Positions 44,140 to 61,285 of a stretch of 64,000 nt of DNA are shown here, in pieces. A program made the translations under genes and the position numbers. Position 1 is the stretch's first letter. The number at the start of each line of letters is the position of its first letter. The notes under the pieces were generated by a model. It was given only the letters and a program-made list of their open reading frames with translations, ran no database searches and had not been told where the DNA came from. The stretch is from Brasilonema angustatum HA4187-MV1 (GTDB taxonomy: Bacteria; Cyanobacteriota; Cyanobacteriia; Cyanobacteriales; Nostocaceae): NCBI GenBank assembly GCA_019359695.1, contig JAHHGV010000004.1, positions 98,031-162,030 of the forward strand, written 5' to 3'.

Positions 44140-45123
44140 TTATGAGTGGGAAAGTTCAGTAAAGACACCAATTTTACGGAATTTTTCGTAGCGCATTTGG
44201 CGTCGTTCACTAGGAGTGAAGCGGTTGAGTTCCTCCAAATTGTCTAAGAGGGCTTGCTTGAGAGTGGTGACTGCTCCCAGAGGATCAGAATGAGCACCAC
44301 CAACGGGTTCAGGTAATATCTGGTCGATGATTCCCAAGTTTTTCAAATCCGGTGCTGTCATTTTCAAGACAGCAGCTGCTTGGGGGGCTTTGCCAGCATC
44401 TTTCCACAAAATAGCAGCGCAGGCTTCAGGAGTAATCACAGTGTAAACGGCGTGTTCAAACATTAGCAGGCGATCGCCAACACTAATACCCAATGCACCG
44501 CCAGAAAAGGCTTCACCAATAACAGCACAAACTATCGGCACATCCAAGGAAAACATCTCACGTAGGTTGTATGCGATCGCTTCTCCTGCACCTTGTCGTT
44601 CAGCGACGACTGTAGGTAAAGCTCCTGGCGTGTCGATAAAAGTTAAAATTGGCATGCCAAACTTGTTGGCGTGTTCCATCAAGCGCATCGCCTTACGATA
44701 GCCACCTGGGGAAGCCATACCGAAATTACGGGCAATATTGTCTTTTGTGTCGCGCCCTTTTTGATTACCCAGCATAACCACAGGTTGTCCGCCCAAACGA
44801 CCTACACCACCAACTAAGGCAGGGTCGTTAGAACCACAGCGATCGCCATGTAACTCCATCCATTCATCACTGATAGCTTGAATATAATCAAGCGTACTAG
44901 GGCGGCGCGGATGACGGGCGACTTGTAGTCGCTGAGACGGCGATAGACTACCAAATATTTCTTCACGCAGTTGCATGGCGCGTGCTTCTAGCTGACGAAT
45001 TTGACCAGAAACATCGACACCGTTTTCTTCTGCAAGTTGCCGAATTTGCTCTATTCTAGTTGCCAGTTCTGCTAGCGGCTTTTCAAAATCCAACAGTAGC
45101 GGTTTACGCTCGGTAGTAGCCAT
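44140..45123 (-). CDS. accA: Acetyl-CoA carboxylase carboxyltransferase alpha subunit
   Basis: [18 protein letters not shown]...GRP.TLDYI...ELHGDR...VGG.GRLGG AccA blocks. Start at MATTERK. Confidence 0.9.
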
Positions 45124-45232
45124 TTTTTGACGAAAAAAGTGAAGAGTAAAAATTGAGGTGTGGGGCAATGGGATTTTCTATACTCATGAGTCACTAGCTC
45201 ATAACTAATAACTCATGACTTATGACTAATCA

Positions 45233-46252
45233 CTAAACCAGGAGTGGTCTAAATCCATGCTTTCTTGATACCTGACCAATTTGCTCCATTTTTTCTACAG
45301 TAATCCGATTGCGCCCCCAAGAGAAGTTAGTGTATAACTTCTCAAATTCCAATAGCATTGATTCTGCAAAACAAGCAAACAACTGGCGTGCTGGAACATC
45401 CATATTGACGATGCCCATAATTTTCCAATCAATATCCAGGGAATGTTCCACAATCCCACCATTTAGGACGTGTACACCAGGATGCTGAACTTTAGTTGCG
45501 AGATTTTTTGGATAGCCACCATCAATCAGCAAACAAGGTTGCTTTAAAACTTTGGGGTCGATTTCCATCCCTTTAGGCATACTAGCAACCCAAACGACAA
45601 TATCAGCTTGGGGAAGTGCTTCTTCCATAGACAGGATTTTTCCACGCCCCAGTTCGTCTTGCAGCTGTTGTAGGCGTTCTTGGTTACGGGCTACTAGCAA
45701 CAGTTCCTTGACATCTGTTTTTGCATCCAACCAACGACAAACAGCACTACCAATATCTCCAGTCGCCCCGCATACAGCAACCGTTGCATTTGATAGTTCA
45801 ATGCCTACTTGTTTCGACGCTTTTTCTACCTGTTGACAAATGATGTATGCTGTATGAGTGTTACCTGTGGTAAAGCGTTCAAACTCTAATTTTATATTGC
45901 GGACTTGTTTGAATTGCTCTAAATTAAAGTTTTCAAAAATTATTGAAGAAAATCCGCCTAAAGCTGTGATACTTATCCCGTGCTTTTGAGCGTGAGCCAT
46001 AGCGTTGAGGATTTTGCGTGTTGCAGCTTTGATGCGACGAGTTGCCAGCATTTCTGGCAAAAAGCCTGACTCTACATACCGCCCTTCAATTTTTTGTCCG
46101 GTAACACTGGTAACTGTAATGTTATCGACAATTTGGGGTGGAGCGCTGCACCAAAAATCTAACCCCTGATCAGCATATTCTGGGTAGCCCAATTCTTTGG
46201 CTACTGCTTGCGCGTGTTCTAAACTAGTAAGGTGTCCGATTAGACCAAACAT
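45233..46252 (-). CDS. aar: Acyl-ACP reductase (fatty-aldehyde forming)
   Basis: [18 protein letters not shown]...[18 protein letters not shown] is near-identical in pattern to Synechococcus orf1594 AAR. Confidence 0.85.
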
Positions 46253-46580
46253 GAACGATGTTGTGACGCGTATCCTTCGTTAGAAGGGTGGAATAGGCGG
46301 GTTAAGATATAATTAACCCTTCAAAATACTACACAAAAACTAACCAGCAAATGAGAGTCTGCTCTAGCTTTTGAGAAATTCAAAATCACCGAATATTCGA
46401 GCGGAGGAAACCTCCGCTCCAACTTCTCTCAAAATGCAAAATTCAAAAAAAAGACTCTTTAATTTTGAACTTTGTTAGCGCAGCGGCACGCACTCATCCT
46501 TTGAATTTTGAATTCCTCCCAAGGGTAGATCCCTAATTCCCACTCTTTCAAAAAGTGGGGACTTTGAGTTTCCTGTTCTC

Positions 46581-47273
46581 CTATCCGGTGATTCCGTAGG
46601 CAGACAGACGCATGAGCTCGCGGGTGGAAAAACCAATATTACTAAGGGCTTCTCCGTACTGAATCATGAAAGCTTCTACTAAAGCGTCCTTATCCATAGC
46701 TAAGGTGCGCGCATCATCCTCAACAGAGTTGAGCATTTTCCACACTATGGGCAAGTTTTGGCGATTTGCTTCTTCTAATTCCGCTTTGGATTGTTCAAAG
46801 TGTTCTTTCAACCATACTTCTCCAAAGTTGAGGTGGCTGTATTCGTCTTTGACTACTCCTTCAGTGATTTTACGAGCAAAATCATCAGCAACTTCGATGT
46901 AAATTTCGTATGCGGCGATCGCAAAACATTCAATAATCAAAGACTGAATCAGCAAGCAAGTAACGACTTTACCTTCAGCCGCTGCTTTTTGAAAATTTTG
47001 ATGCAATGGAGCAAAAAACTCTTGAGCAAATTGCATATCTGGCGTTACCTTCAGATTGCGCCCACAAGCTTCAAATCCTTTTTTGTGGCGACTTTCCATC
47101 TTAGAAAGGCGAATGAGCTCATCTTGATTATCGCTCAGCAGTTCAGCGAGTTTGAGATAATTTGCGTGGGCTTCCTGTTCGCCTTCTATCACAATCGCAT
47201 TGATCCGGCTGTAAGCGTCTTTGTATACTTCGCTCTGGAAGTCAAGTTTTGGTTGATCTACAAGCTGCTGCAT
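46581..47273 (-). CDS. ado: Aldehyde-deformylating oxygenase (alkane-forming)
   Basis: [13 protein letters not shown] ... ESRHKKGF ... [11 protein letters not shown] ... DEYSHLNFG di-iron ligand pattern of ADO. Confidence 0.9.
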
Positions 47274-47814: not shown

Positions 47815-48930
47815 CTAACCAGTCTCCTGAATTTGTAGACGGATAGTGTGTTCAGTGCCACCACTCAGTTGTAACTCCATAACTTCACCGCCAAGGGGTT
47901 CCAAGCATTCAAGAAGTTCTCGCAAGCGTGGTGTACTTGCACCCGTATCCACATACAAACGGTCTGATAGATTACCAATTTTCTTCCAACTCATGTACAA
48001 TTTGGCAATCATTTGCTCTAGTTGAGATGCTTGATTCACTAAGTCTGCTGCTATGCTCAGACAGCCAACTCTTTGAGCTTCTATCAGGGCTGTTTCGATG
48101 TCAACTTCTTGAGCGTTTAGTGCTTGGACTTGAGCTGCTGCTTTGAGATATTTTGCCAGATTACGAGCATCTGTGGTGACTTGCTTGATGGTATCTATGT
48201 CAGGATTTTGAGATATTTCCTTTTGAATCGCGTTTTGGTGAGATTCTGGTAATTTCTCCATCTCCTTTACCAATGGCGCGATGTAACGCGGAGGAAGAGA
48301 ATTTTCTGCTGCTTTTACCTTGACTGGTTCGGGTAGCAACTCGGAAGACATTGCTGTCCATTCGTCGTTGATTTGACGTACTTCTCGTCTGGTGATGCGA
48401 TCGCCTTTTTGGGCTGCTTCACCTACCATCTGTTGGACTTCTGGCGCAGCTTTGGCTGTTTCGATAAACGCCCGTTTGCTAAAATTATTGATGGCTGATG
48501 GTTCTAATCTTCCTTCTTCTAAGAGAGTATCAGCGCTGTTCGCTAGTTGAATCAGAGCATATGCTTGACTTTTGCCAATTTCTCGTTCTTTGAGCCATTT
48601 GAGAAAACCAGCACCTCGTCCCTCACCGCCTATTTTCTCTCTGTCGCGAACAGCGCGTAAAATTCGTCCTCGCCAAATGTCGGTTTGCAAATCAAAGCGA
48701 TCGCACACCTGCCAAGCGACATCTAGCTGCTTTTGAAATTCCGGTTCAGGAATTTCCTCATCTTCGGGATCAGGTAGTTCAAATTCAAAATCAGCCGGCT
48801 GTTGCAGAAGTGCAGCCAACTCATCAATAGATTCGTTATATTGCACGATTTTATAGTTTATTAATTTATAACTGTATGCGCGGTTTATTATCACATATTC
48901 CGCGTAAGCTAGATTGTATGCCTGAGTCAT
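47815..48930 (-). CDS. Hypothetical acidic protein (371 aa)
   Basis: ORF only. Its 5' end overlaps the divergent ChaC-family start by 13 nt, so one of the two starts is probably further in. Confidence 0.5.
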   Translation of the reverse strand: MTQAYNLAYAEYVIINRAYSYKLINYKIVQYNESIDELAALLQQPADFEFELPDPEDEEIPEPEFQKQLDVAWQVCDRFDLQTDIWRGRILRAVRDREKIGGEGRGAGFLKWLKEREIGKSQAYALIQLANSADTLLEEGRLEPSAINNFSKRAFIETAKAAPEVQQMVGEAAQKGDRITRREVRQINDEWTAMSSELLPEPVKVKAAENSLPPRYIAPLVKEMEKLPESHQNAIQKEISQNPDIDTIKQVTTDARNLAKYLKAAAQVQALNAQEVDIETALIEAQRVGCLSIAADLVNQASQLEQMIAKLYMSWKKIGNLSDRLYVDTGASTPRLRELLECLEPLGGEVMELQLSGGTEHTIRLQIQETG

Positions 48931-49628
48931 TTGTTCCTAGCTATGTTTATTTTGGCTTGAGTACAATCTTGTCACTAACACGCTCCGACCTTGAATCCAG
49001 CCGCTTGCAGCAAACCATCTTACAATCTGGACGTGCGGTAAATGTCCTGAGTGAAGCCCAGTTGCAGGCGTCAATGCATGAAACTCTTGGGCAACAAAAC
49101 CCAAACTCTGATGTTTGGTTGTTTGCCTATGGTTCTCTGATTTGGAACCCCATCTTCAAATTTGCAGAACAGCGCATCGGCACGATTTACGGTTGGCATC
49201 GCCGTTTTTGTTTATGGGTTCCCCAGGGGCGTGGTACTCCAGAAAACCCAGGGTTGGCACTCGGTTTGGATAGAGGCGGTAGTTGTCGCGGTGTCGCCTA
49301 CCGCATAGCTGCTAGTGATGTACACTCAGAACTAGAGCTACTTTGGCGACGAGAAATGGTAGTTGGTTGTTACATTCCTCGTTGGGTGAGAGTGTTTGAC
49401 GGTACGCAAAGATTACAGGCGATCGCTTTTGTCATCAATCACCAACATCGAGCTTACAGTGGTAAGATTTCCCTTGAAACTACAGTTAATAGCATTGCCA
49501 CAGCTTGCGGTGAGCTTGGTTCTTGTGCTGACTACCTCATGCACACAGTCAATTCCTTGATAAGTGTTGGAATTAACGATAAACAATTGCTTCGGTTGCG
49601 CGAGTCCGTGATGGCGCGACAAAATTAG
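48918..49628 (+). CDS. chaC: ChaC-family gamma-glutamylcyclotransferase
   Basis: VWLFAYGSLIWNP...GWHRRFCLW...GVAYRI...LWRREM ChaC blocks. Confidence 0.7.
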   Translation: MPESFVPSYVYFGLSTILSLTRSDLESSRLQQTILQSGRAVNVLSEAQLQASMHETLGQQNPNSDVWLFAYGSLIWNPIFKFAEQRIGTIYGWHRRFCLWVPQGRGTPENPGLALGLDRGGSCRGVAYRIAASDVHSELELLWRREMVVGCYIPRWVRVFDGTQRLQAIAFVINHQHRAYSGKISLETTVNSIATACGELGSCADYLMHTVNSLISVGINDKQLLRLRESVMARQN

Positions 49629-49881
49629 GGATATATTTTCAAAGTGTTGCGATCGTTAATAAGCGTTCGCGTTCACTGCGATTGTTTGGAATTTTATTAA
49701 TATTTTAGTTATTCTTATTGACAAGATGTCTTTGTTCTGTACTGTCTAGGACTTTACGTTCCTCAATTCACGATCATGAACGTTACATGCGTCTAGGTAG
49801 GTTCGTAATAACAGCTTTTACGTTATTAATAGTTAAAAGTGAGACACATCTTACATTTTAACAAAGCCGAGAAAAGCAAAA

Positions 49882-51420
49882 ATGGCTCGCACGCCCACAC
49901 TAACTTTTGATCGTGGCACATTAATTTTGCATCCACCACCACGCGGCAGGGCTTGGATGGATTTTGCTACATGGGATGATAGAGTAGAAAAATTCCGCAT
50001 TCCGGCTATTCAATACCGTGCTTTGGTGGAAGCAATGCAAGCCCAAGATACTAATTTTATCGATGAAGCTAAGGCGTTTTATCCGATAGAGTTGGTTCCG
50101 AGTCTGGAAATGGAACCTTATCCCCACCAAAGTGAGGCGTTAGCTGCTTGGAAACTCGCGGGAAGACAAGGAGTCGTCGTGCTTCCCACCGCAGCGGGAA
50201 AGACGTATCTGGCGCAAATGGCGATGCAAGCGACGCCGCGCACGACACTTATTGTCGTGCCAACGCTGGATTTAATGCATCAGTGGTATGCTCATTTGAA
50301 GGCGGCGTTTCCTGATGCTGAGGTTGGGTTACTTGGCGGTGGTTCGCGCGATAGAACACCTGTACTTGTTGCCACTTATGATAGTGCGGCTATCCATGCG
50401 GAAAGTTTGGGGAATCTGTATGCTTTGTTAATTTTTGATGAATGTCATCATTTGCCAACAGATTTTAGTCGGGTGATTGCGGAATATGCGATCGCACCCT
50501 ACCGTTTGGGACTATCTGCGACACCCGAACGCACTGATGGTAAACACGCTGACTTGAATTTTTTAATAGGTAGAGAAGTTTATCGCAAAAGGGCTGAAGA
50601 TTTAGCAGGGAATGCGTTAGCAGAACATGAAGTTGTACAAATTAAGGTGAAATTATCACAAAATGAGCGGGAAAAATACACTCAACTGATTCAAGTTCGC
50701 AATGATTTTTTGAAGGAATCAAAGATTTCTTTGGGGAGTCTTCAAGGCTGGCAGAGATTTGTGCAAATGAGTGCGCGATCGCAAGCTGGGCGTAGAGCCA
50801 TGTTAGCGCATCGGGAAGCGAAAGAAATTGCTTTGGGTACTGATGGGAAGATAAGAGTTCTTGCTGATATATTAACAGAACATTATCCAGAAAGAGTTTT
50901 GATTTTTACTGCTGATAATGCGACAGTTTACCACATTTCTCAAAATTTTCTGGTTCCAGCAATTACTCATCAAACTCCTGTCAAGGAACGGCATGAAATA
51001 TTAACAAAGTTTCGAGAGGGAGAGTTTAAAACTTTGGTTGCTTCTCACGTGTTGAATGAGGGTGTTGATGTTCCTGCGGCTTCTGTTGCGATTATTTTAT
51101 CTGGTACTGGTTCAACACGGGAGTATATTCAAAGATTGGGAAGAGTTTTAAGAAAAGGTAAGGATAATAAGAAGCAGGCGATTTTGTACGAGGTGGTGGC
51201 GGAAGATACGAGTGAGGAAGGGACTTCAGCGAGGAGAAGAGGTGTGGAGAAGAAAAATGAACCGCCAAGACGCCAAGAACGCCAAGAGAAAGAGGAGAAG
51301 AAAGGGAATTTACGGGTTATTTATGGGAGTGGGAAGGAAAAGAGTCTTAAAGCTGCTGAACAGTTGGAGATAAATTATAAAGTTCAAAAGAAACCGCCGA
51401 TAAATACGGATGAAACCTGA
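49882..51420 (+). CDS. XPB/ERCC3-like SF2 DNA helicase with a Lys/Glu/Arg-rich C-terminal tail
   Basis: N-terminal DRGTLIL damage-recognition-like segment. LPTAAGKT (motif I), FDECHHLP (motif II), GLSATP (motif III), QRLGRVLR (motif VI). Confidence 0.65.
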   Translation: MARTPTLTFDRGTLILHPPPRGRAWMDFATWDDRVEKFRIPAIQYRALVEAMQAQDTNFIDEAKAFYPIELVPSLEMEPYPHQSEALAAWKLAGRQGVVVLPTAAGKTYLAQMAMQATPRTTLIVVPTLDLMHQWYAHLKAAFPDAEVGLLGGGSRDRTPVLVATYDSAAIHAESLGNLYALLIFDECHHLPTDFSRVIAEYAIAPYRLGLSATPERTDGKHADLNFLIGREVYRKRAEDLAGNALAEHEVVQIKVKLSQNEREKYTQLIQVRNDFLKESKISLGSLQGWQRFVQMSARSQAGRRAMLAHREAKEIALGTDGKIRVLADILTEHYPERVLIFTADNATVYHISQNFLVPAITHQTPVKERHEILTKFREGEFKTLVASHVLNEGVDVPAASVAIILSGTGSTREYIQRLGRVLRKGKDNKKQAILYEVVAEDTSEEGTSARRRGVEKKNEPPRRQERQEKEEKKGNLRVIYGSGKEKSLKAAEQLEINYKVQKKPPINTDET

Positions 51421-51645
51421 TAATCTTGCAATAATTATAGGAACATCCCAATGCATACAAAAATACTAAGACTTACCCAAAAACCCTTTTAAACTCTCTT
51501 ACCTTCGTGCTCTTTGCGTCCTTTGCGGTTTATTATTTTATTCTCCTGTTCCCGTCTCAATACGAGATGACAGTAAAGTTGCACATTTGGAATGTTTCCA
51601 TAATTACCTGTATTCATCTGCATTTATCTGCGGTTAAAAAGTTCA

Positions 51646-52860
51646 ATGCTACCAACAGAGTTACTAAGTCACAGGCAAAATGGGGAAGAAATTATCCCGA
51701 AGAGACTGAAGATTGATGATAATCATTTGGCGATCGCCACTGAGTTAACAAGTTGTTTTCAGGAGGCGGTAGGTGAGACTCAAGGTACACTTGAGCGTCA
51801 GTTGTCGGAGTTGGAGGGGGATACTCCAGATTATAGACTCAAGCGGGGTTTAGCTTATATCCTCAAAAGCAGTTTCTCCACTTTTGAGGTGGTGAGTCCT
51901 TTGGAACCTCAAATGTTACGAGAAAGGGTTTTTGCTTTGGCGGCGAAGTCTGCTCCGAGTCGCGAGTTGACAGAAACGACTTTAACAAAGATTGCTGATG
52001 AATTGAGTCATGAACTTGAGCGTGAAGTTTTGCCAAAACAAGTTGGTGAAGGATTATATGCGGATTTGTCTGAGAATAAGATTTTAACTGCTTTTGATGC
52101 GCCAGCACCCCATGATTTATTGCATCGCTACAATTTATCTCAGGTGCAGGGGGTGTTTTATAGAGCAAGTCAGTTGGTGATAAATGCTCATCGCAATGTG
52201 CCTGGACAATATAAGCTTTTGTTTCGCTACCTCAAGTTGTTTCAATTAATGTCTTATATTGAGGGAGATGCTGACCACGGTTTTACAATTACAATTGATG
52301 GTCCGACGAGTTTGTTTACTCCCAGTACGCGGTATGGTTTGGCTATAGCGAAGCTAATCCCGGCTTTACTTCATGTCACAAAATGGAGTCTTTCCACTAT
52401 ATTACAAATTCGTGATCCATACACAAATACATGGAAAACGGGACGTTTTACTCTCAATTCTGAATGCGGTTTGGTGTCTCATTATTCCACTGGTAAACCA
52501 TACGATAGTATGTTGGAAGAGTCTTTTGCTGATAAGTGGGAGTCAACAAAAACGGATTGGGTGTTGGAGCGAGAGGTTGACTTAATTCCTATTCCTGGAA
52601 GTGTGATGATTCCTGATTTTAGATTAGTCCATCCTGATGGGCGATCGCTGTTATTAGAAATAGTTGGTTATTGGCGACCAGAATATTTACAAAAGAAGTT
52701 TTCCCAAGTACGACGTGCAGGACGTGATGATTTGATTTTGGCAATTTCAGAGCGATTGAATCTGGAGAAAGCCGGAGTTCAATTAAATGATGTGCCTGCT
52801 AGAATTGTTTGGTTTAAAGATAAATTGTTGCCGAAAGCGGTGTTAGCAGTGATCGAGTAA
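51646..52860 (+). CDS. Bax1-like nuclease (DUF790), the usual XPB partner
   Basis: 404 aa immediately downstream of the XPB gene. C-terminal PD-(D/E)xK-like segment IPDFRLVHPDGRSLLLEIVGYW. Confidence 0.55.
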   Translation: MLPTELLSHRQNGEEIIPKRLKIDDNHLAIATELTSCFQEAVGETQGTLERQLSELEGDTPDYRLKRGLAYILKSSFSTFEVVSPLEPQMLRERVFALAAKSAPSRELTETTLTKIADELSHELEREVLPKQVGEGLYADLSENKILTAFDAPAPHDLLHRYNLSQVQGVFYRASQLVINAHRNVPGQYKLLFRYLKLFQLMSYIEGDADHGFTITIDGPTSLFTPSTRYGLAIAKLIPALLHVTKWSLSTILQIRDPYTNTWKTGRFTLNSECGLVSHYSTGKPYDSMLEESFADKWESTKTDWVLEREVDLIPIPGSVMIPDFRLVHPDGRSLLLEIVGYWRPEYLQKKFSQVRRAGRDDLILAISERLNLEKAGVQLNDVPARIVWFKDKLLPKAVLAVIE

Positions 52861-53100
52861 GTAGGTAGGCGTGAATAAACCTCACTATGTAACAGAATGT
52901 AAATTTGTCAAAACCCTTGCGATTGGATTGAGTCGATGGAAGGATGAAAATGTTTCTTCCTCACTCCTATTTTCATAGGGAATATGGGCATTACATCCCT
53001 TAATGGTGGGTTTTACCCAATTCAGGAAGGGGACTGGAATTGTTAAGATTAGAGAAATCACAATATATTAAAACAGCCAGCACAACTGAGTTACAAGACC

Positions 53101-53676
53101 ATGCCTATAGAAATCGCTGTTGAAAAGAAAAAGTTACAAAATCCGCCATTAGAACTTCATTACTTGGGCGATCGCGTTCTCCGTCAAGCTACTAAGCGTG
53201 TATCGAAAGTCGATGAGGAAATTCGTCAAGTGATACGCGAAATGCTACAAACTATGTACAGCAAGGATGGCATTGGTTTGGCTGCGCCTCAAGTGGGAGT
53301 TAACAAACAACTCATTGTCATCGACTGCGAACCAGATAACCCAGCTAACCCACCACTGGTATTAATCAATCCCACTATCACAAAAGCTAGCCGTGAAATT
53401 TGTATGGCGCAAGAAGGATGTTTGAGTATTCCAGGGGTTTACATGGATGTAAAGCGTCCGCAAGTTGTAGAAATTTCTTATAAAGATGAACACGGGCGTC
53501 CCCGGACTCTAAAAGCTGGAGATTTACTTGGACGATGCATTCAGCACGAGATGGATCACCTCAACGGCGTGGTATTTGTAGATCGTGTAGAAAACTCTTT
53601 AGCTTTGACGCAAGAGCTATCTAAGCATGGGTTTTCACATCAGGCTGTAAAACCAATAGATAGGGTGGTTCGCTAG
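53101..53676 (+). CDS. def: Peptide deformylase
   Basis: GIGLAAPQ, EGCLSIPG and HEMDHL metal-binding motifs. Confidence 0.9.
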   Translation: MPIEIAVEKKKLQNPPLELHYLGDRVLRQATKRVSKVDEEIRQVIREMLQTMYSKDGIGLAAPQVGVNKQLIVIDCEPDNPANPPLVLINPTITKASREICMAQEGCLSIPGVYMDVKRPQVVEISYKDEHGRPRTLKAGDLLGRCIQHEMDHLNGVVFVDRVENSLALTQELSKHGFSHQAVKPIDRVVR

Positions 53677-54520: not shown

Positions 54521-57500
54521 CTACGGCGAACCCAGTGACTGATAACACCAGCTAGGACGGCGCAAAAGATTAAAGGTATCAATGTAACGAATTCGGCTGT
54601 CTGGTGCTACTGTAGCAACAGCATCAGTTAATAAGCCAATGGGGTTATTGAGGTTCCACAACGGATGAACAATAATAACTGTTATATCACCCACTGTAAA
54701 ACCAGGCAAACTTCCGAAATATTGCGGAGAACAACTACTAAAAGATGCACAAAAAGCATCTCGAAGTTCAGTTGCTGTTTGTCGCCAGTTTTCTAAGTCT
54801 GGGGCAGAAAAATCGCCGTGCAAACCGCAACTAAAATTATTATCAGCTAATGCCTTGAGTAAAGAGAGACCACTACGCCAATCGAGCAAGCCGTGATAGT
54901 TTATATTGCGGTAGTGTCGTAAGCACTCATAACAGGAAGAATCACATTTCTTGCGATGCTGCTGTGACATCATGGCATCAACAAAAGTATTTTGTGCTTT
55001 GATAATTTTTTCTATGAGGATGTTTTGCCAATGTTGGGCAAGCCATAATGTAAAACCAGAACCATTGGGTAGGCGATCGCTAATTACAATTTCTCCTACT
55101 TTTTCACCAGTTTCTTCTAGTTCAAGCTGCCGTAAACCACTCACATCTAATTCATCTGGATCAATATCTAATTCCTGTGCTGCGACAGCACGGATAATAA
55201 AAGCCGCAGAATAGAAAGCAGCTTTAATAGCTGAACCAGGTGCAATGGGATCGAGACATAATCCAGTGGGTACAGATGCGGGTTTGATGCGGAGAACGCC
55301 AGTTGTTTTCGGTGCAACAATAGCCAGTGCTTCAGATTCACCCGGTTCTTTAAAAATTATCCCATTGGATGGATTCTGAAATCGTTCATCAATCCATTGA
55401 AATTCTAAAATTTTTTCACCACGTCCAAAAGAAGCTTTACCTACTGCTCCTTTAAACAAATTCCCGCGATTATCATTAACACGGAATACTCTGCCAGTTT
55501 GAGAAAAAGCGGTCTGAGTATTTGTATTATCTATGAAGTTAAAATTTTGAGGTTGCGACTCAGCAACACTACCCGCACCTGAGATTAATACATCATGTTC
55601 TTCCTTTGCATCTGTACCATAGTTGAGGCTAGTACGAAAAGCCAAAGGTACTGCCCATTTAAAAACTTTAAAACCTTGTTCTGGTATTGCTCCACATTTG
55701 GGACAGACCGTATTTTCAAATTCATTATCAGAAGTTTCTGTATGTTGGCAGCGCTGACATCTCAACATCCACTTTCGGGAAGAAAGCGGGTCATTCTCAG
55801 CAGGAACAAAGCCATTTTTACTGTCTGGAAGTAACGGTGCAGTAAAACCAATAGAGGTGTAAATTCGTTTATCTTTAGTCTTTTCTGCACCTGGGGCAAA
55901 TTCCGCAATAGCTAAATCTAAATCACGGTCGATAGTAGCAATCTTCTTGTTTTTTGATGGATTGTGATGATACAAATCCCGAACTCTGGATGGCATACCG
56001 AACATGGGCAAAACACCACCTTCTGCAAGTAGTTCTGCTAATCCCTTTCCTGTCAATTCTTTATTATTTGCACACTCGTTTATCTTGTTAAACAAGTCCT
56101 GACGCGCATAATTTTCAAAAAAGATGGGAGCGATATTTTTTACACCAATAAGCAAATCATTTACTACCTCGGTAACTTCAGGTGAACTCTGTAACCATTG
56201 ACAAACTTTCTGACGACGAGATTCTTTTTCTAGCCAGTCTTTTACTGTACCAAATTCCCCGTGACTATCTGGCGGCGTGGGACCATCCCACCACTTAACA
56301 TCAGCACATAGAAACGCACGTCGCAGACATTCTTTTGCTAATAGACGCCGTGCAATTTCAATTTGTGACATCGATAGAAAGGGAACTGGTGGCGGGTCAC
56401 CTGTAATTTTTTCGGGATGTTGATAATAAAATTCATCGTGACTGTTACCACGACAAATAGTTAATACAATGGCGAAAGGTTGACCCCGACGACCTGCACG
56501 ACCTGCTCTTTGTTGGTAATTAAAACGCATGGGTGGCATATTTGCCATCACTACAGCCATTAAACTACCAATATCAATTCCCACTTCCATTGTGGTAGTA
56601 ACACTTAGGATGTCGATAGTATCAACCACTGGGATAAAATCTCTATCTTGTTCGCCGATGTTGACAACAATATTGCGAAAATGGCGCTGTCTTTCTGCTT
56701 GATCGTCGGTTTGTCCTGTCAATTCTTCACAATGCAAACGCATGGGTTGACGCTTATTAACTGCTTCTGTCGCGTAATAATTACGAGCGTATAAATCTGA
56801 GCATTTTTTATTAGGTGATATGGGTAATTCTGCAAGACAATTTGTACAGATACCGGCTGCACGATGTAGGTGAGGGCGTCCACATGATGTGCATTGCCAA
56901 ACTGGATCACCGGGAACTGCAACTCGTACCCATAAATGCAGCGGGTTAATTTTTAAATGTTCATGTTTACCATGTTGGCAAATAGCTGACCACAATGCAT
57001 CAAATAATAGCTTCTCAGAAAGCTTATGCTGTGTCACGCATTTAGTGACATATTTTTTCAATCTGGCTTTTGCATCTTGCCAACTGTTCCAATCCTCAGC
57101 AGGATACTTAGGATACCGATACAAATCACCAATGACACGCAAGCATCCGTTGCATATTTCGATAAAAACTTCTGGTGAAAGTTTGCATTGTGTAGCTAAT
57201 TTATTGATTTCTTCTTGTGGAAAATTAAGACAAACATAGCCTAGAGCGGATGCTTCAATGCTATAAAATAAGCGACTAAAGAAAGTATCGCATACTTCAG
57301 ACTCTGTTTTTGATATAAGAGTATATCGCTTGTCAATTGCTTCCCTAGAAGAACCAGCTTTCCATTTTGGTGATTGAGATACAAAATCAAAAAATCCTGT
57401 CCAATGATGTAATTTCTTGTCGTAAGAAAACTCTTGGTCATTGATATCGTTACCAGCAGGATTTATGCCTAAACTAGCTAATCTCTGAATAAGTACTCCT

Positions 57501-60205
57501 GGAGTATCTTTTTCGCCTTCAAATAACACCTTAAGTGAAACGATGCGCGTTTTAGCTGTTTCTTTAATTTCATTGATGAGATTTTGAGCCTTATTTCGGC
57601 GATTGATATACAGTTCTAAATCATCATCATCAAGACCTTCTGGCAAAGGTTTATTAGCATTTTTTATAGTTTTTTTAAACTTTTCGACAGCATCAGGGTT
57701 ATTTTGAGCAAATTCTCTTGCTTCTAAACGAACAGGTTGACCATATTTTTGAATATCTTCTAATAGGTAAACTTTACCAACAGCTAATTGATTAAGTTCA
57801 TCAAATATTGCCTCACGAACAAGGTCAGAGTAATGAGTACGTTCAATCCCATTTGATATTGAAGCGGCATTTTCACGACTATCAGAAAATACGACTAATT
57901 TACGAGAGTCTGATTTTTCTGGTAACTGATAAAAGATTTCTTTAGATAGCAGTTGACTCAACCTAGAAAATGCAGTACGGAAGCCTCTAATTGAAGATTT
58001 CCAAGACCTTCGCCTAGTGTAATCTGCACCACAACATGGGCAAAGAGAGGGTTGTGCTGCCATAAATGCTTGCGTTTCTGGTGATGTATCTCGCAAGTTG
58101 AAAATATAGCCTTTTATCCACTGATTATCTGCTGTATCTGAATCAGGTTCTTCTAAAGTAACGCGACTACTACGAGTGTCTAACCAGGCTTTATCCCACC
58201 AAGCTTTTTCTTTAATTTTATCGCCTCTTGATGGTTGGTTCCAGCCTTTTATATTTAATTCTTTGTCATAAAGATTTGTAGAGGGATAAAATATAGCATA
58301 TTCACGATATGTTCGCCGTTCTAAAAAATTACCAATTTGGCGGTCAGGAATGCTTTCAATATTTGGTTCTGTAGGCAAAAGTTCCCAACCATTACCGTCC
58401 TTTAGTTCCAGACGGTTTCCACCATAAAAGACAGTACCGCACTGTTCGCAGTAAAGCATTTCTAGCACTCGAAATCCATCATGAACTATTGGTGGATTTT
58501 TTACAAAGAGTCTACCTACCGGTCGGTTTTTACTACTTTCATTCTCATGACAATCATAATTTGGCTGAGTGCAAGCCCAAAGCCCATCAATATTTCTGAA
58601 AAACCAGTGCAACCTAAACCGAAATGATTCTAAAGATTTATCTTCAGATAAACCACGAGCAATTAGCAATCCCTTTACTGCTAAATTAAGATTTTCTTCA
58701 TCTAAATTCTCACCAAAAATCCCTTTAGCAAATTGCCTGAGAGATACTGCACGAATTGTATTGTCGAGCTTACAAGAGTTAAGCATTATAGCGCCTACAG
58801 TATCGCTTTGTGATGACAAGACTTGTAAACATTTCTTGAGAAAAGTGGCTTCCTCTGGTGCGTTTGCTAAGGCGATAAATGGTTCACTCTCTAAAAATTT
58901 TTGTCCGACAATTGCTGGAATTGCCTCAGGATGACCAGGGATAATTTGTTCGGAATGCCATTCTGTACCGAAGAATTCAGATAAGAATTTTAAACTTTGT
59001 GGGTCATTTGGTTCAAGAGACGCACTAGAGGCAAGAATTTTTAATTTAGGATGACCAGGATAAAGTTCCAAACGTTGCAGCAGCAGGCGAATCAGGTAAG
59101 CAACTTCTGTCCCAGCAGTGCCACGATAAAGGTGTAATTCATCAAGAATTAAGTGAAAAACACTGCCTTCTTTCTTTAACCATTCCCGTGTTTTATCAAA
59201 AATATTTTTATCAATATCTCGCATCAGCATAATGCTGAGCATGGAATAATTAGTAATTAAAATATCAGGTGGATCATCTTGCATATCCCAACGACAGCGC
59301 ATTTCCGCCCCATCTAAACGCGGGAAAAAGAATGTTACATCCTTGTCACCAGTTTTCTTAAAATGTTCCTCAGCAGCTTGGACTGATTTTTGCATCTGCT
59401 GCATTTCTTCAAGAAGTTCTTCTATCTTGTCCCCGTTAGGTTTACCATTTTGTTTGTACTCATGCCCTGGTACAGGTGTGACGCCGTTGTATCTGCCAAA
59501 ATAAATTCTGTTGTCTTTTCTATTATTTTTAAACCAATCTCGCGCCTTGTCAGAATCTAAAGCGCGGCGTAACCTGGTAAGTTGGTCTTCAACAAGGGCA
59601 TTCATCGGGTATAAAATTAGTGCCCTTACCGCAGCATCTCGTTTTTCATGATTCCTTTGAGGTAGGCGATAAGATTGCTTAAAACTGCGGTTTTTCTTTA
59701 CTAGAGGGTTGCATTTATTTTGCCAATCTTTGTTTTCCCACCAGTCATCGATATGCGGTGGCGCTGCTGACGGTGCTTGCCAGTTTTTTGATTCTTTGGC
59801 TAGATAAGCAAACAAGGGTAAGAGGAAAGATTCTGTTTTACCTGAACCTGTACCAGCAGTAACAACTGCATTTTGACCCGATAATCCTTGACGGAGCATT
59901 TCCAGTTGGTGAGTGTATAATTCAAAATCACCAACCAGTCCACAGGAAGCTAATTCTTTAAAATCTAGCAGTGCAGACTTATCTAAACCTGGAACATCTG
60001 AAAGTTGTAAATTATTGATTGTTTTCCCAGATTTTTGATAACGAGGTAAAGGTTCGATCCAAGGTTCTTGATAAAATACTCCTGGTTCACGCAAACGTCG
60101 TTCCCGTTCCTTCTCAATTTCAGGAAATTGTGTACCGAAAGCAGTTTTAACATAAAGGATTAAGTTGTCGCGTAGCTTTTCAAAAGCGCCGATAGGGTCT
60201 TTCAT
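54521..60205 (-). CDS. Giant (1894 aa) YprA/DUF1998-type SF2 helicase with zinc-ribbon-rich insert and C-terminal DUF1998-like zinc module (DruE/DrmA-like)
   Basis: [10 protein letters not shown] (motif I), [11 protein letters not shown] (YprA-type motif Ic), [16 protein letters not shown] (DExH), [13 protein letters not shown] (motif VI). Cys clusters CQRCQH...CPKCG and [14 protein letters not shown] near the C-terminus. Confidence 0.75.
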
Positions 60206-60211
60206 TTATCC

Positions 60212-61285
60212 TCACAATTTGACGTCTAAAGATTGTATTAATAGAGTTTGACCTAATTTAGCCGCAGTCATTTCTGCTATTTGAGGGGGAACGTCTCGAA
60301 ATAAGTTGAAACCTTTGACATTAAAACCGTTGACCACTTCTTTCGGTTTTGGGATAGAAGAATTAGAAGTGAGTTTTTGTAATGGGAATTTTTCTACTAT
60401 TGGTACGTATCCTGAGCATAAAGTTAAAGCTCTTTCTAGCACTTTTGGTAGTTTAGCGCCAACCGGAACTGCCATCATAAATCGACGTTTGTCGTAAATG
60501 ATAACTTTAATCTTAGCAGCATTAATAACAGCATATCGCCCCCAGTCACGTTCAACTTGGGTACATCTTTCTTCTTGCCAAAGATAATATGTTTGGGTTT
60601 TGCGAGAGGGATGTTGATATTTGCTGAGACGGATATTCGGCACTCTCATTCCCGACGCACCTCCCATTGATGAGGGAGAAGGGAGAAAGCGTAATATATT
60701 AGGATCAAATGTTTGACGTTTCCAGTTTAATTCTGACTCATTAGACCACTGGCAATTAGTTAAATAATCTTCAAGGGAGGCGGAAAAATTTAAAAGCGAC
60801 CAAGCTGATGGTGTTTCTATAAAATTCATTGCTAATTGAGAAGCAATTTCCTGTAATTCTGATACATCCTCAGCTTGTACAGCTATTCGCTTAGGTACTA
60901 ATACTAATTCAGCCTTTTGTTCTGTCACTTCAATCTTTATGTTTCGTCCAACAGATTGACAAGTATTTCTTAATTTATCTATAGTGTTTGGTGTTCTAAA
61001 TCCTGCTAAAATAGCTTGAGGAAAACCAGCGCTAGGTAATCTTATTAATACAGGGGGAGTGACATAAACTTTTTTGTTATTGTCAGTGAAATCAAATTCA
61101 CAGTGACCCAATGAATCCAGAGCGCGAACAGTTGATAATCTTTTATCTTTAATGTCATCCTCCTCCTCACTACAAGCAGTTCTATTAAGACTGTAAAGAT
61201 AATAAAATGCCTGTTTAAGAGATAACCAAGGCATTTCCTTTTTAGCAGAAATGACATAGAGTAGTTCGTCGCTATCCCTGGACAC
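60212..61285 (-). CDS. Hypothetical protein (357 aa), middle gene of the helicase cassette
   Basis: 6-nt gap to the helicase start. No recognisable domain. Confidence 0.6.
   Translation of the reverse strand: MSRDSDELLYVISAKKEMPWLSLKQAFYYLYSLNRTACSEEEDDIKDKRLSTVRALDSLGHCEFDFTDNNKKVYVTPPVLIRLPSAGFPQAILAGFRTPNTIDKLRNTCQSVGRNIKIEVTEQKAELVLVPKRIAVQAEDVSELQEIASQLAMNFIETPSAWSLLNFSASLEDYLTNCQWSNESELNWKRQTFDPNILRFLPSPSSMGGASGMRVPNIRLSKYQHPSRKTQTYYLWQEERCTQVERDWGRYAVINAAKIKVIIYDKRRFMMAVPVGAKLPKVLERALTLCSGYVPIVEKFPLQKLTSNSSIPKPKEVVNGFNVKGFNLFRDVPPQIAEMTAAKLGQTLLIQSLDVKL

Follow-up and report, generated by a model that had tools for sequence, protein, structure and literature searches.

A chromosomal XPB-Bax1 helicase-nuclease gene pair is conserved across Nostocales cyanobacteria

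Results

A helicase gene and a nuclease gene lie on the same strand

We analysed a 64,000-nucleotide stretch of DNA from Brasilonema (Nostocales), hereafter the window, in which an earlier note, made from the sequence alone, had described an archaeal-type XPB helicase and Bax1 nuclease pair. Both open reading frames lie at the coordinates, and have the lengths, given in that note. The locus comprises the following features:

49882-51420, plus strand: XPB-type SF2 DNA helicase/translocase gene, 512 aa, with DRD, HD1, ThM, HD2 and a cyanobacterial tail (ORF list, Pfam and PDB matches)
49900-50070, plus strand: damage-recognition domain (DRD), aa 7-63; PF18458 XPB_DRD, profile positions 1-57 of 57
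50107-51240, plus strand: helicase core, aa 76-453, with HD1 (motifs I, II, III), RED-equivalent, thumb (ThM) insert and HD2 (motif VI); near gap-free alignment with AfXPB
51241-51417, plus strand: C-terminal tail, aa 454-512; variable Lys/Arg/Glu-rich linker followed by a conserved motif
51304-51378, plus strand: conserved tail motif GNLRVIYGSGKEKSLKAAEQLEINY, aa 475-499; in 74 of 74 scorable orthologous loci
51421-51645, plus strand: intergenic spacer, 225 nt, unusually long for this operon
51439-51599, no strand assigned: MITE-like insertion, 161-bp core, with 8-bp direct repeats and imperfect inverted ends
51646-52860, plus strand: Bax1-type (DUF790) endonuclease gene, 404 aa, with NTD, Cas2-like CRD and nuclease domain and lacking the C-terminal domain
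52501-52857, plus strand: nuclease (NUS) domain, aa 286-404; acidic residues E291/E292, D324 and E338 mapped onto AfBax1

The upstream gene encodes an XPB homologue

The 512-aa helicase matches XPB_DRD over the full profile length with 89.7 bits against a cutoff of 26 (Pfam), and its TFDRGTLIL N-terminus sits within this match; the other Pfam domains are ResIII (87 bits), Helicase_C and ERCC3_RAD25_C. Its sequence is 100 % identical to that of a Brasilonema angustatum HA4187-MV1 protein. A search of the PDB aligned aa 7-456 with XPB from Archaeoglobus fulgidus (AfXPB; 2fwr/6p66_A) at 41 % identity (E = 1e-102) and returned StXPB from Sulfurisphaera tokodaii at 7e-99. XPB chains scored between 1e-102 and 8e-99, whereas no helicase other than XPB did better than 6e-17, and yeast and human XPB chains matched at E of about 1e-22. 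The helicase motifs I (PTAAGKT, 102-108), II (DECHH, 186-190), III (SAT, 212-214) and VI (QRLGRVLR, 417-424) are invariant in an alignment of 18 Nostocales orthologues. The earlier description of an XPB/ERCC3-like helicase with a DRGTLIL N-terminus and these four motifs is therefore borne out, and the protein groups with XPB rather than with type III Res subunits, as its DRD and the gap between 1e-102 and 6e-17 indicate.

The RED-equivalent that follows motif III reads R217-T218-D219. R217 and D219 do not vary among the 18 Nostocales sequences or in Deinococcus, Haloferax and Archaeoglobus, while the middle residue varies across the XPB family, being E in AfXPB, D in StXPB, S in Deinococcus, P in Haloferax and T in the window; the StXPB equivalent has been described as R205-D206-D207 (PMC7672443). 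At the level of sequence, residues 222-330 align without gaps to the AfXPB thumb region and would form a long thumb. An AlphaFold2 model built from 18 Nostocales sequences had a mean pLDDT of 46.7, with less than 35 in the tail, and is uninformative on the thumb fold and on the tail. The best NCBIfam model for the helicase is repair_heli_XPB, and its score against NF045503 (194.1 bits, in two stretches) falls below the 610-bit equivalog cutoff of a model that is tuned to archaeal sequences. Judged by these matches, the helicase is an XPB homologue, although it lies outside the NCBI 'equivalog' range.

The downstream gene encodes a Bax1-type nuclease

DUF790 (PF05626) covers aa 1-403 of the 404-aa protein over the entire profile (1-387 of 387) with 523.1 bits against a cutoff of 28.8 (E = 4.8e-157). 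The NCBIfam Bax1 models gave 164.2 and 143.5 bits, below their 500-bit equivalog cutoff, and the PDB matches were to Bax1 chains 8gy8_A (1e-30), AfBax1 6p66_B (8e-29) and StBax1 (1e-22). The alignments cover aa 1-392 of 8gy8_A and aa 1-368 of AfBax1 and reproduce the architecture of NTD, Cas2-like CRD and nuclease domain. Hence the assignment to DUF790/Bax1, which the earlier note had offered as a point on which its reading could fail, agrees with Pfam, NCBIfam and the solved Bax1 structures alike. E-values of this size against solved structures (1e-29 to 1e-30 for Bax1, 1e-102 for XPB) leave no room for a chance match. An AlphaFold2 model (12 cyanobacterial sequences; mean pLDDT 53.6) was confident only in the nuclease domain (pLDDT 83-89); with this model, the top seven Foldseek matches were all Bax1 chains and the sole confident ones, at a global TM-score of 0.24.

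Within the nuclease domain, E291/E292, D324 and E338 align with E274/E275, D305 and E318 of AfBax1, acidic residues that are needed for cutting, as their mutation abolishes cleavage (PMC7293015). Across 16 diverse members of the Bax1 family, conservation reaches 90 % or more at D324 and E338, and W343 does not vary. A C-terminal nuclease domain is thus present as the earlier note had proposed, but its PD-(D/E)xK-like label fits less well: in place of a textbook PD-(D/E)xK string, the active site follows the pattern E...D...E-x-x-G-x-W, as in Bax1/VRR-Nuc. Four of the six AfBax1 residues at the N-site and XPB interface (F119, Y131, D133, E135, Y155 and N156) are identical in the window, where they correspond to Y138, D140, Y162 and N163; the differing positions are F119, replaced by L120, and E135, replaced by S142 with E143 adjoining.

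XPB precedes Bax1 in most genomes, and the spacer in the window carries an insertion

We scanned Bax1 loci with a six-sequence alignment as query; the counts given here refer to the best 80 loci out of at least 589 positive genomes, all Nostocales. XPB lies directly upstream of Bax1 on the same strand in 75 of these 80 best-scoring genomes. The two genes overlap at 50 of the 75 junctions (48 of them by 71 nt), and a further 11 have spacers of at most 60 nt. In the window, the nuclease gene does not follow the helicase directly, as had been stated, since 225 nt (51421-51645) separate them. Most of this spacer is made up of a lineage-specific, MITE-like insertion of about 161-178 bp, flanked by the direct repeats ATAATTAT (51431-51438) and ATAATTAC (51600-51607) and bounded by the imperfect inverted ends AGGAACAT and ATGTTTCC. 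It is found in Brasilonema UFV-L1 (89 % identity) and missing from the sister species Brasilonema CT11 and from Scytonema, and no second copy occurs within the 64-kb window.

The spacer contains no terminator-like site, promoter and terminator scans did not rise above shuffled expectation, its RNA fold is not significant (z = -1.8), and positions 49500-53200 gave no Rfam match. Upstream of the pair we found no LexA-type box or other damage-response signal; the only match to the LexA-box pattern RGTACNNNDGTWCB near the genes is on the minus strand within the XPB coding sequence, and this count fits chance. Chlorogloeopsis, Deinococcus plasmids and Haloferax pHV4 also carry the two genes in this order. 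Fischerella, Westiellopsis and four non-Nostocales cyanobacteria that we sampled have no XPB gene beside Bax1, so that the need of the nuclease for XPB may not be absolute.

Sequence identity of the pair declines with taxonomic distance

More than 100 Nostocales clusters contain XPB at 80-98 % identity, and Bax1 is full length and 81-99 % identical in all 80 of the best genomes among the at least 589 that are positive. Beyond the Nostocales, as judged by the names of clusters and by a further protein search, Leptolyngbya, Nodosilinea and Leptothoe widely carry Bax1 too, and the window protein is 64-67 % identical to its Leptolyngbyales counterparts. The view that the pair is uncommon in bacteria consequently does not hold within cyanobacteria, given that at least 80 Nostocales species share both proteins at 80-99 % identity and that a cyanobacterial occurrence was already reported in 2005.

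The earlier note had also proposed to compare the phyletic distribution of the pair with the host phylogeny as a test for horizontal transfer. A recent acquisition from archaea, which would make the two genes an accessory island pair, is in our judgement highly improbable. It could draw on the mainly archaeal distribution of the family and its rarity in most bacterial phyla (PMC1189080, PMC3353954), and on the flanks of the pair, which are housekeeping genes that differ between genera. However, identity declines with taxonomic distance, from 96-99 % in Brasilonema through 89-95 % in Scytonema and about 84 % in Nostoc to about 65 % in Leptolyngbyales, and this argues against recent import. There is likewise no compositional anomaly (G+C of the genes 0.40-0.45, window mean about 0.42), and the window ORFs and a domain search revealed no integrase or transposase adjoining the pair. 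The closest relatives outside cyanobacteria are those on Deinococcus megaplasmids (XPB 60 %, Bax1 48-51 %), compared with 25-45 % for archaeal proteins and 45 % between the helicase and Haloferax XPB. Since these nearest outside relatives are bacterial (50-60 %) and not archaeal, any inter-domain transfer would be ancient. Our searches found the pair in no viral contig, no phage record and no cyanobacterial plasmid, and the location of its non-cyanobacterial relatives on Deinococcus and haloarchaeal megaplasmids fits some horizontal mobility. Taken together, the sequence comparisons support the view that the pair consists of conserved, vertically inherited chromosomal genes in filamentous cyanobacteria.

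The helicase tail ends in a conserved peptide

The unusual Lys/Arg/Glu-rich tail pointed out previously is indeed atypical of XPB, as it occurs in all Nostocales orthologues and is missing from AfXPB, Haloferax XPB and Deinococcus XPB, but it measures about 59 aa (454-512) when counted from the end of the archaeal XPB homology and not the estimated 70 or so. Its linker (aa 454-472) contains 63 % charged residues and is followed by a motif with the consensus LxVVYGSGKEKSLKAAEQLEINY, in which AAEQ is found in 70 and VAEQ in 4 of the 74 scorable loci. Across 75 sequences, those of the 74 loci and that of the window, the positions L, V, Y, A, E, Q and Y never change, and each is encoded by two to four synonymous codons. 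This synonymous variation points to selection on the motif at the protein level; it rules out conservation at the nucleotide level, such as an internal promoter for bax1.

The tail consists of a charged, flexible linker and a conserved peptide, and this peptide would most plausibly dock onto a partner protein. The sequences 'QLEINY', 'QLDLNY' and 'QLGLW' resemble the bacterial clamp-binding consensus, QLxLx[LF], although the resemblance is short and could be chance. We tentatively suggest, as a rather unlikely possibility, that the peptide is a docking motif, possibly of a clamp-binding-like type (QLxIxY), which joins an archaeal/eukaryotic-type XPB-Bax1 incision machine to the bacterial replisome or another host complex. 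If so, cyanobacteria would possess a specific, UvrABC-independent excision or fork-processing pathway, which in simpler form would also exist in Deinococcus and, following PMC3424549, in Rubrobacter and would aid UV, desiccation or radiation tolerance. The conserved peptide also provides a concrete handle for finding the cellular partner of the XPB-Bax1 machine.

The neighbourhood offers little for a defence role

The neighbours of the pair are ChaC, def and CMD genes, and a complete Druantia operon (DruF4-DruL4-DruE4) lies 1.7 kb downstream on the opposite strand. XPB-Bax1 can be rejected as a part of this Druantia system, because of the opposite orientation, the intervening def and CMD genes and the absence of DruE from the 80 loci (no match in a tblastn search with the window DruE).

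The Druantia operon is nonetheless one of the observations that would fit an anti-phage or anti-plasmid, restriction-like module, in which the helicase translocates on foreign DNA and a PD-(D/E)XK-type nuclease degrades it. The helicase core also resembles defence helicases (PADLOC PbeA, 191.7 bits; Dnd-associated TIGR04095, 121.7 bits), relatives reside on Deinococcus and haloarchaeal megaplasmids, and Feder and Bujnicki left open a 'selfish character' (PMC1189080). Yet the PbeA profile (positions 237-639) matches nothing beyond the generic core of the helicase, aa 65-448, Bax1 has no PADLOC match at all, and no PbeBCD, Dnd or Mod genes, or other partner defence genes or methyltransferase, lie near the pair in the window; nothing supports the restriction-like alternative that the earlier note had raised. 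Defence genes are typically patchy in distribution and fast-evolving. The near-uniform, full-length and highly conserved spread of the pair across the order is the opposite of this pattern, XPB and Bax1 genes that have become split each lie among housekeeping genes, and the pair is missing from the phages and viral contigs searched. We therefore consider a defence role improbable, and a weaker explanation than genome maintenance.

Discussion

First, our analyses demonstrate homology of every domain, conservation of the catalytic and ATPase motifs, operon linkage and vertical conservation of the pair across the Nostocales, and with XPB at 1e-102 and DUF790 at 523 bits the archaeal-type XPB-Bax1 identification stands. 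We consider it likely that the two genes are cyanobacterial orthologues of archaeal XPB-Bax1, form a two-gene operon and serve chromosome maintenance rather than defence. By analogy with archaea, they would most likely serve genome maintenance, as a machine that first opens a bubble or fork in the DNA and then cuts it; complex formation, enzymatic activities and the in vivo substrate we infer from the solved complexes of archaea, to which the pair is homologous. XPB and Bax1 would be co-transcribed, XPB would bind distorted or forked duplex DNA via its DRD, RED-equivalent (R217/D219) and thumb and would use ATP for 3'->5' translocation that wedges the strands apart, and an XPG-like incision would follow 3' of the lesion. 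UvrABC is present in cyanobacteria, beside which the pair may provide an auxiliary excision or fork/bubble-processing route. Counted against a maintenance role are the NCBI equivalog scores below cutoff, the two AfBax1 interface/N-site residues that differ, the weak UV phenotype of XPB deletion in Thermococcus, the lack of a damage-response signal, the occasional unlinking of Bax1 and the megaplasmid relatives.

Second, a role in replication or transcription, at stalled forks, R-loops or transcription bubbles, with recruitment by the tail to, for example, the sliding clamp, SSB or RNA polymerase, seems to us possible, with a smaller but real share of the probability. The in vitro substrates of archaeal XPB-Bax1 are forks and bubbles and not lesions as such (PMC7672443), and archaeal XPB mutants are barely UV-sensitive, deletion of XPB in Thermococcus causing slight UV sensitivity only (PMC7690668). 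The same explanation gains from a tail motif that is under protein-level selection and placed behind a flexible linker like recruitment peptides, from the QLEINY-type likeness to the clamp-binding consensus, and from the fact that cyanobacteria already have UvrABC. The brevity of that likeness, which could be chance, weighs against it, as do the Deinococcus and archaeal XPBs, which work without such a tail.

Third, the pair is an orthologue of a known system, already visible in family surveys and in RefSeq, where it is labelled 'DEAD/DEAH box helicase' and 'DUF790 family protein', and not a new kind of system. A 2005 publication already described DUF790 together with an SF2 helicase in "Archaea and Cyanobacteria" (PMC1189080). 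According to a 2012 paper on M. tuberculosis, an XPB-Bax1 complex had not yet been identified in bacteria, and 'few, if any' cyanobacteria possess XPB (PMC3353954). The Nostocales-wide XPB and Bax1 matches contradict the latter statement, and our analysis corrects it. In the literature searched, we found no experiments on the orthologues from Deinococcus or cyanobacteria, or on any other bacterial member of this clade. XPB-Bax1 serves in archaea as a model of the XPB-XPG step in nucleotide excision repair of eukaryotes, and its in vivo role is unsettled even in archaea; a genetically tractable order (Nostoc/Anabaena and relatives) that keeps a conserved chromosomal copy beside UvrABC therefore offers a practical in vivo system.

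Comparison with known systems

The PbeA and Dnd-associated restriction helicases and type III Res share an XPB-like SF2 core with the window helicase, which differs from them in that a DRD replaces their N-terminal modules and the Bax1 nuclease is separate. M. tuberculosis XPB (Rv0861c) and eukaryotic XPB/ERCC3/Ssl2 have the SF2 XPB core, a RED-type motif and the 3'->5' polarity class in common with the window XPB. Unlike in the latter, their N-terminal domain is long and eukaryote-like and their thumb is short; those of eukaryotes act within TFIIH.

The closest non-cyanobacterial relatives are the Deinococcus DEAD/DEAH helicase and DUF790 proteins, for example those of D. peraridilitoris (pDEIPE01; WP_041231895/WP_015231275), which are encoded by overlapping genes and carry an R-S/T-D motif; in published trees, cyanobacterial and deinococcal DUF790 proteins cluster together. 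Whereas the cyanobacterial pair is chromosomal, the Deinococcus pairs reside on megaplasmids or secondary replicons, and their XPB ends in an unrelated stub of about 20-25 aa in place of the LxVVYG...AAEQLEINY motif.

Compared with archaeal XPB-Bax1 (A. fulgidus 6P66; Sulfurisphaera tokodaii 6P4F/6P4O/6P4W), with XPB sharing 41 % and Bax1 about 25-30 % of its residues, the window pair resides in a bacterial host with UvrABC, its XPB carries the 59-aa extension with the conserved motif and a Thr at the middle RED position (E or D in archaea), and its Bax1 differs at two N-site/interface residues and, like many archaeal Bax1 proteins, lacks the C-terminal dimerisation domain. Both systems share the domain orders DRD-HD1-ThM-HD2 and NTD-CRD-NUS, the helicase motifs, the R and D of RED, the nuclease acidic residues and the order of adjoining or overlapping genes.

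Identity of the helicase and the nuclease

Profile, alignment and structural matches identify the two genes as genuine XPB and Bax1 orthologues, which in Nostocales appear to constitute a conserved, vertically inherited operon. Both ORFs lie where the earlier note had placed them:

49882-51420, plus strand: XPB-type SF2 helicase, 512 aa
XPB aa 7-63: damage-recognition domain (DRD; PF18458, 89.7 bits against a cutoff of 26, complete)
XPB aa 102-108: motif I, PTAAGKT
XPB aa 186-190: motif II, DECHH
XPB aa 212-214: motif III, SAT
XPB aa 417-424: motif VI, QRLGRVLR
51646-52860, plus strand: Bax1-type (DUF790) endonuclease, 404 aa

Besides the DRD, the helicase carries the ResIII/DEAD, Helicase_C and ERCC3_RAD25_C modules (Pfam). 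Against all PDB sequences its best match is XPB from Archaeoglobus fulgidus (Af; 2fwr/6p66_A, E 1e-102, aa 7-456, very few gaps), with XPB from Sulfurisphaera tokodaii (St) at 7e-99, eukaryotic XPBs at about 1e-22 and the top non-XPB helicase at only 6e-17. This ranking places the protein in the XPB group rather than among type III restriction Res subunits, the alternative named beforehand, and together with the complete DRD and the helicase motifs it bears out the earlier identification. R217-T218-D219 follows motif III at the position of the RED motif, whose R and D are invariant in Nostocales, Deinococcus, Haloferax and Archaeoglobus and whose middle residue varies (E in Af, S in Deinococcus, P in Haloferax and D in St, where the motif is R205-D206-D207; PMC7672443).

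In the nuclease, Pfam DUF790 spans aa 1-403 (523 bits, E 5e-157), both NCBIfam 'endonuclease Bax1' models match (164 and 143 bits), and solved Bax1 chains align across the N-terminal, Cas2-like and nuclease domains (8gy8_A, 1e-30; AfBax1 6p66_B, 8e-29; StBax1, 1e-22), confirming the DUF790/Bax1 assignment first made by reading the sequence. XPB and Bax1 both score under the NCBI equivalog cutoffs, which are archaea-tuned; they are clear homologues that are not named automatically, and in RefSeq they are annotated as 'DEAD/DEAH box helicase family protein' (XPB) and 'DUF790 family protein' (Bax1). Residues E291/E292, D324 and E338 align with AfBax1 E274/E275, D305 and E318, of which E275, D305 and E318 are the likely metal-binding triad; the D305A substitution almost eliminates junction cutting by the archaeal complex (PMC7293015). 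Among 16 diverse family representatives, D324 and E338 are conserved in at least 90 % and W343 is invariant. A PD-(D/E)xK-like C-terminus had been proposed earlier; the nuclease site has the E...D...E arrangement of the Bax1/VRR-Nuc type, with no literal PD-(D/E)xK string. At the N-terminal site and XPB interface of AfBax1, four of six residues are identical in the window protein (Y138, D140, Y162, N163), and L120 and S142 differ. The AlphaFold2 model of Bax1 is poor overall (pLDDT 53.6) and confident in the nuclease domain (83-89); searched against the PDB with Foldseek, its only confident matches are seven Bax1 chains, after which come the PD-(D/E)XK nucleases YaeQ and NucS/EndoMS. The protein is without the C-terminal dimerisation domain of AfBax1 and StBax1, a domain reported to be poorly conserved and missing from many archaeal Bax1 proteins.

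A conserved peptide in the helicase tail

The helicase had been credited with an unusual Lys/Arg/Glu-rich tail of about 70 aa; the tail is real, but only about 59 aa (454-512) lie past the end of archaeal-XPB homology. It is missing from Archaeoglobus and Haloferax XPBs, is represented in Deinococcus XPB by only a short unrelated stub, and is universal in Nostocales orthologues, where it measures 59-116 aa from the SARRR anchor. The tail opens with a Lys/Arg/Glu-rich linker whose length varies greatly, after which comes the motif L-x-V-[VI]-Y-G-S-G-K-E-[KR]-S-L-K-A-A-E-Q-L-E-I-N-Y, present in all 74 scorable orthologous loci (AAEQ in 70, VAEQ in 4). When codons are compared across these loci and the window (75 sequences), the residues L, V, Y, A, E, Q and Y never change although their codons do, two to four synonymous ones being used at each position; selection therefore acts on the peptide rather than on any DNA signal within the coding sequence. 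Recruitment motifs usually have this form, a short conserved peptide on a flexible linker, and we take 'QLEINY', 'QLDLNY' and 'QLGLW' to resemble the bacterial sliding-clamp-binding consensus. The AlphaFold2 model of the helicase (pLDDT 46.7) is too poor to inform on the tail.

Spacer and gene order

The genes had been described as directly adjacent; a 225-nt spacer in fact separates the two ORFs, with the following features:

51431-51607: MITE-like insertion; 161-bp core at 51439-51599, 8-bp direct repeat ATAATTAT/ATAATTAC, short imperfect inverted ends
51507-51716, plus strand: mechanical ORF of 69 aa ending ...NRVTKSQAKWGRNYPEETED, a frame relic

The insertion accounts for the length of the spacer. 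It is common to Brasilonema UFV-L1 (89 % identity) and missing from Brasilonema CT11 and Scytonema; no second copy was found in the window, and fragments of 36-50 nt from its middle match other Nostocales loci. The 69-aa ORF is the relic of a frame used in Nostoc-type genomes for the last ~23 XPB residues (...NYPEETED), where it overlaps the Bax1 start by 71 nt; XPB stops earlier in Brasilonema and Scytonema. No terminator-like site was found in the spacer. The cyanobacterial LexA-box pattern RGTACNNNDGTWCB is matched perfectly at a site within the XPB coding sequence (50353-50366, minus strand), probably by chance, since the two matches in the window (0.5 expected) are equalled in 12 of 100 shuffles.

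Across the best 80 loci, drawn from at least 589 genomes with a Bax1 relative, XPB lies immediately upstream of Bax1 on the same strand in 75; its ORF overlaps the Bax1 start in 50 of these (by 71 nt in 48), and 11 more have a spacer of at most 60 nt. Head-to-tail or overlapping order is also found in Chlorogloeopsis, Deinococcus peraridilitoris pDEIPE01 and Haloferax volcanii pHV4. The recurrence of same-strand adjacency and overlap supports a putative operon with possible translational coupling. In Fischerella (PCC 9431, CENA71) and Westiellopsis the pair is split (loci L050, L079, L082 and L091), with Bax1 between phosphorylase and ValRS genes (L050) and XPB on another contig amid CysRS, Psb28 and molybdenum-cofactor genes (L091). 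Both genes are nevertheless retained at full length in this Nostocales subclade, at separate chromosomal sites among housekeeping genes, so their partnership does not depend on co-transcription. Bax1 is solitary at its locus in all four non-Nostocales cyanobacteria examined, always in housekeeping surroundings.

Three loci show other arrangements. A same-strand GMC-oxidoreductase gene (568 aa) lies between XPB and Bax1 in Tolypothrix campylonemoides VB511288 (L007, 3593-6000), lengthening the spacer to 2.4 kb. On the D. peraridilitoris megaplasmid pDEIPE01 (L084, 11412-12163), topA follows the pair and a split NucS-domain endonuclease lies 4 kb on, in a DNA-metabolism neighbourhood. Leptolyngbya sp. 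BL0902 (CP046155.1; L090, 13421-16891) encodes a 1093-aa PLD-nuclease and SNF2-helicase protein followed directly by a 60-aa DUF790 C-terminal fragment (profile 336-387, 46 bits), 2 kb from that genome's full-length solitary Bax1; HEPN/nucleotidyltransferase genes come after the fragment, which may be left over from another kind of helicase-DUF790 pairing.

By tblastn, conservation of the flanks stops at the genus: ChaC recurs in 1 of the 80 loci, and the upstream neighbours in few.

44140-45168, minus strand: accA-like carboxyltransferase, assigned by eye
45233-46252, minus strand: acyl-ACP reductase, assigned by eye
46581-47273, minus strand: aldehyde-deformylating oxygenase, assigned by eye
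47815-48930, minus strand: 371-aa acidic protein, no Pfam or PADLOC match

The first three form an alkane-biosynthesis cluster of cyanobacterial type (44140-47273, minus strand; assigned by eye from translations) that lies beside XPB-Bax1 only in the closest relatives (2/80 loci); its presence agrees with a cyanobacterial source. The 371-aa hypothetical protein is 96-100 % conserved in Brasilonema and Scytonema only (3/80), and it overlaps at its start with the 5' end of the mechanical ChaC ORF; the Pfam match of that ORF sets in only at aa 80.

Distribution and inheritance

The window helicase is 100 % identical to a protein of the Brasilonema angustatum HA4187-MV1 MAG. The 120 XPB relatives listed are all 80-100 % identical, and every named one belongs to a Nostocales genus (Brasilonema, Scytonema, Nostoc, Calothrix, Tolypothrix, Fischerella, Chlorogloeopsis, Sphaerospermopsis and others). 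At least 589 genomes encode a Bax1 relative (scan of one genome per species), the best 80 of which are all Nostocales, full length and 81-99 % identical; Bax1 also occurs widely in Leptolyngbya, Nodosilinea, Leptothoe, Adonisia, Pseudanabaena and Symploca, at 64-67 % identity to the window protein. By exhaustive search, the family comprises about 2,400 clusters at 50 % identity. Protein identity drops with taxonomic distance, the G+C of the pair region (0.40-0.45) is the same as the window's, and the ORFs and Pfam matches next to the pair include neither an integrase nor a transposase. On these grounds the pair carries the signature of vertically inherited core genes, not of a recent import.

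Genome maintenance or defence

A complete Druantia-type defence operon lies just downstream of the pair (PADLOC):

54521-63341, minus strand: Druantia operon, independent of XPB-Bax1
54521-60205, minus strand: DruE4, 1894 aa, 1944 bits
60212-61285, minus strand: DruL4, 393 bits
61272-63341, minus strand: DruF4, 858 bits

Its proximity, the resemblance of the helicase core to PbeA (PADLOC, 191.7 bits) and to a Dnd-associated restriction enzyme, and the location of non-cyanobacterial relatives on Deinococcus and haloarchaeal megaplasmids would fit a defence module. However, Druantia is on the opposite strand with def and a CMD gene in between, and it is missing from all 80 related loci, where tblastn with the window DruE found nothing. 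PbeA is matched only in the generic helicase core, no PADLOC model picks up Bax1, and no Pbe, Dnd or Mod partner genes are present. Moreover, no relative was found in 2.9 million viral contigs, among 50,697 phage records or on any cyanobacterial plasmid, and the distribution across the order is uniform, full length and highly conserved, unlike that of defence genes. We therefore consider a defence function improbable.

Because more facts point away from defence than toward it, the pair probably serves genome maintenance. The host also has UvrABC. Action at stalled forks, R-loops or crosslinks is a serious, if tentative, variant of the maintenance reading, since deletion of archaeal XPB causes only slight UV sensitivity (PMC7690668).

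Comparison with known XPB-Bax1 systems

The XPB-Bax1 association is already visible in published surveys: DUF790 was reported to co-occur with ResIII/helicase domains, with a Cyanobacteria-Deinococci grouping (Steczkiewicz et al. 2012, PMC3424549). According to a 2012 study of Mycobacterium tuberculosis XPB (PMC3353954), 'few, if any' cyanobacteria have XPB, and an XPB-Bax1 complex had yet to be identified in bacteria; the distribution among Nostocales genomes contradicts the former statement. As far as the literature searched shows, only the helicase tail is without an earlier description. The finding would not surprise a specialist, but it offers an entry point for studying XPB-Bax1 in vivo in a tractable bacterium. 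By homology with the archaeal structures, the window XPB and Bax1 would coil round ~10 bp of duplex at a ds/ss junction, with the thumb of XPB as a wedge between the strands that also holds the 3' arm and with the RED residues touching the junction, and ATP hydrolysis would move the helicase on by ~2 bp; every element for this archaeal mechanism appears conserved in the two window proteins.
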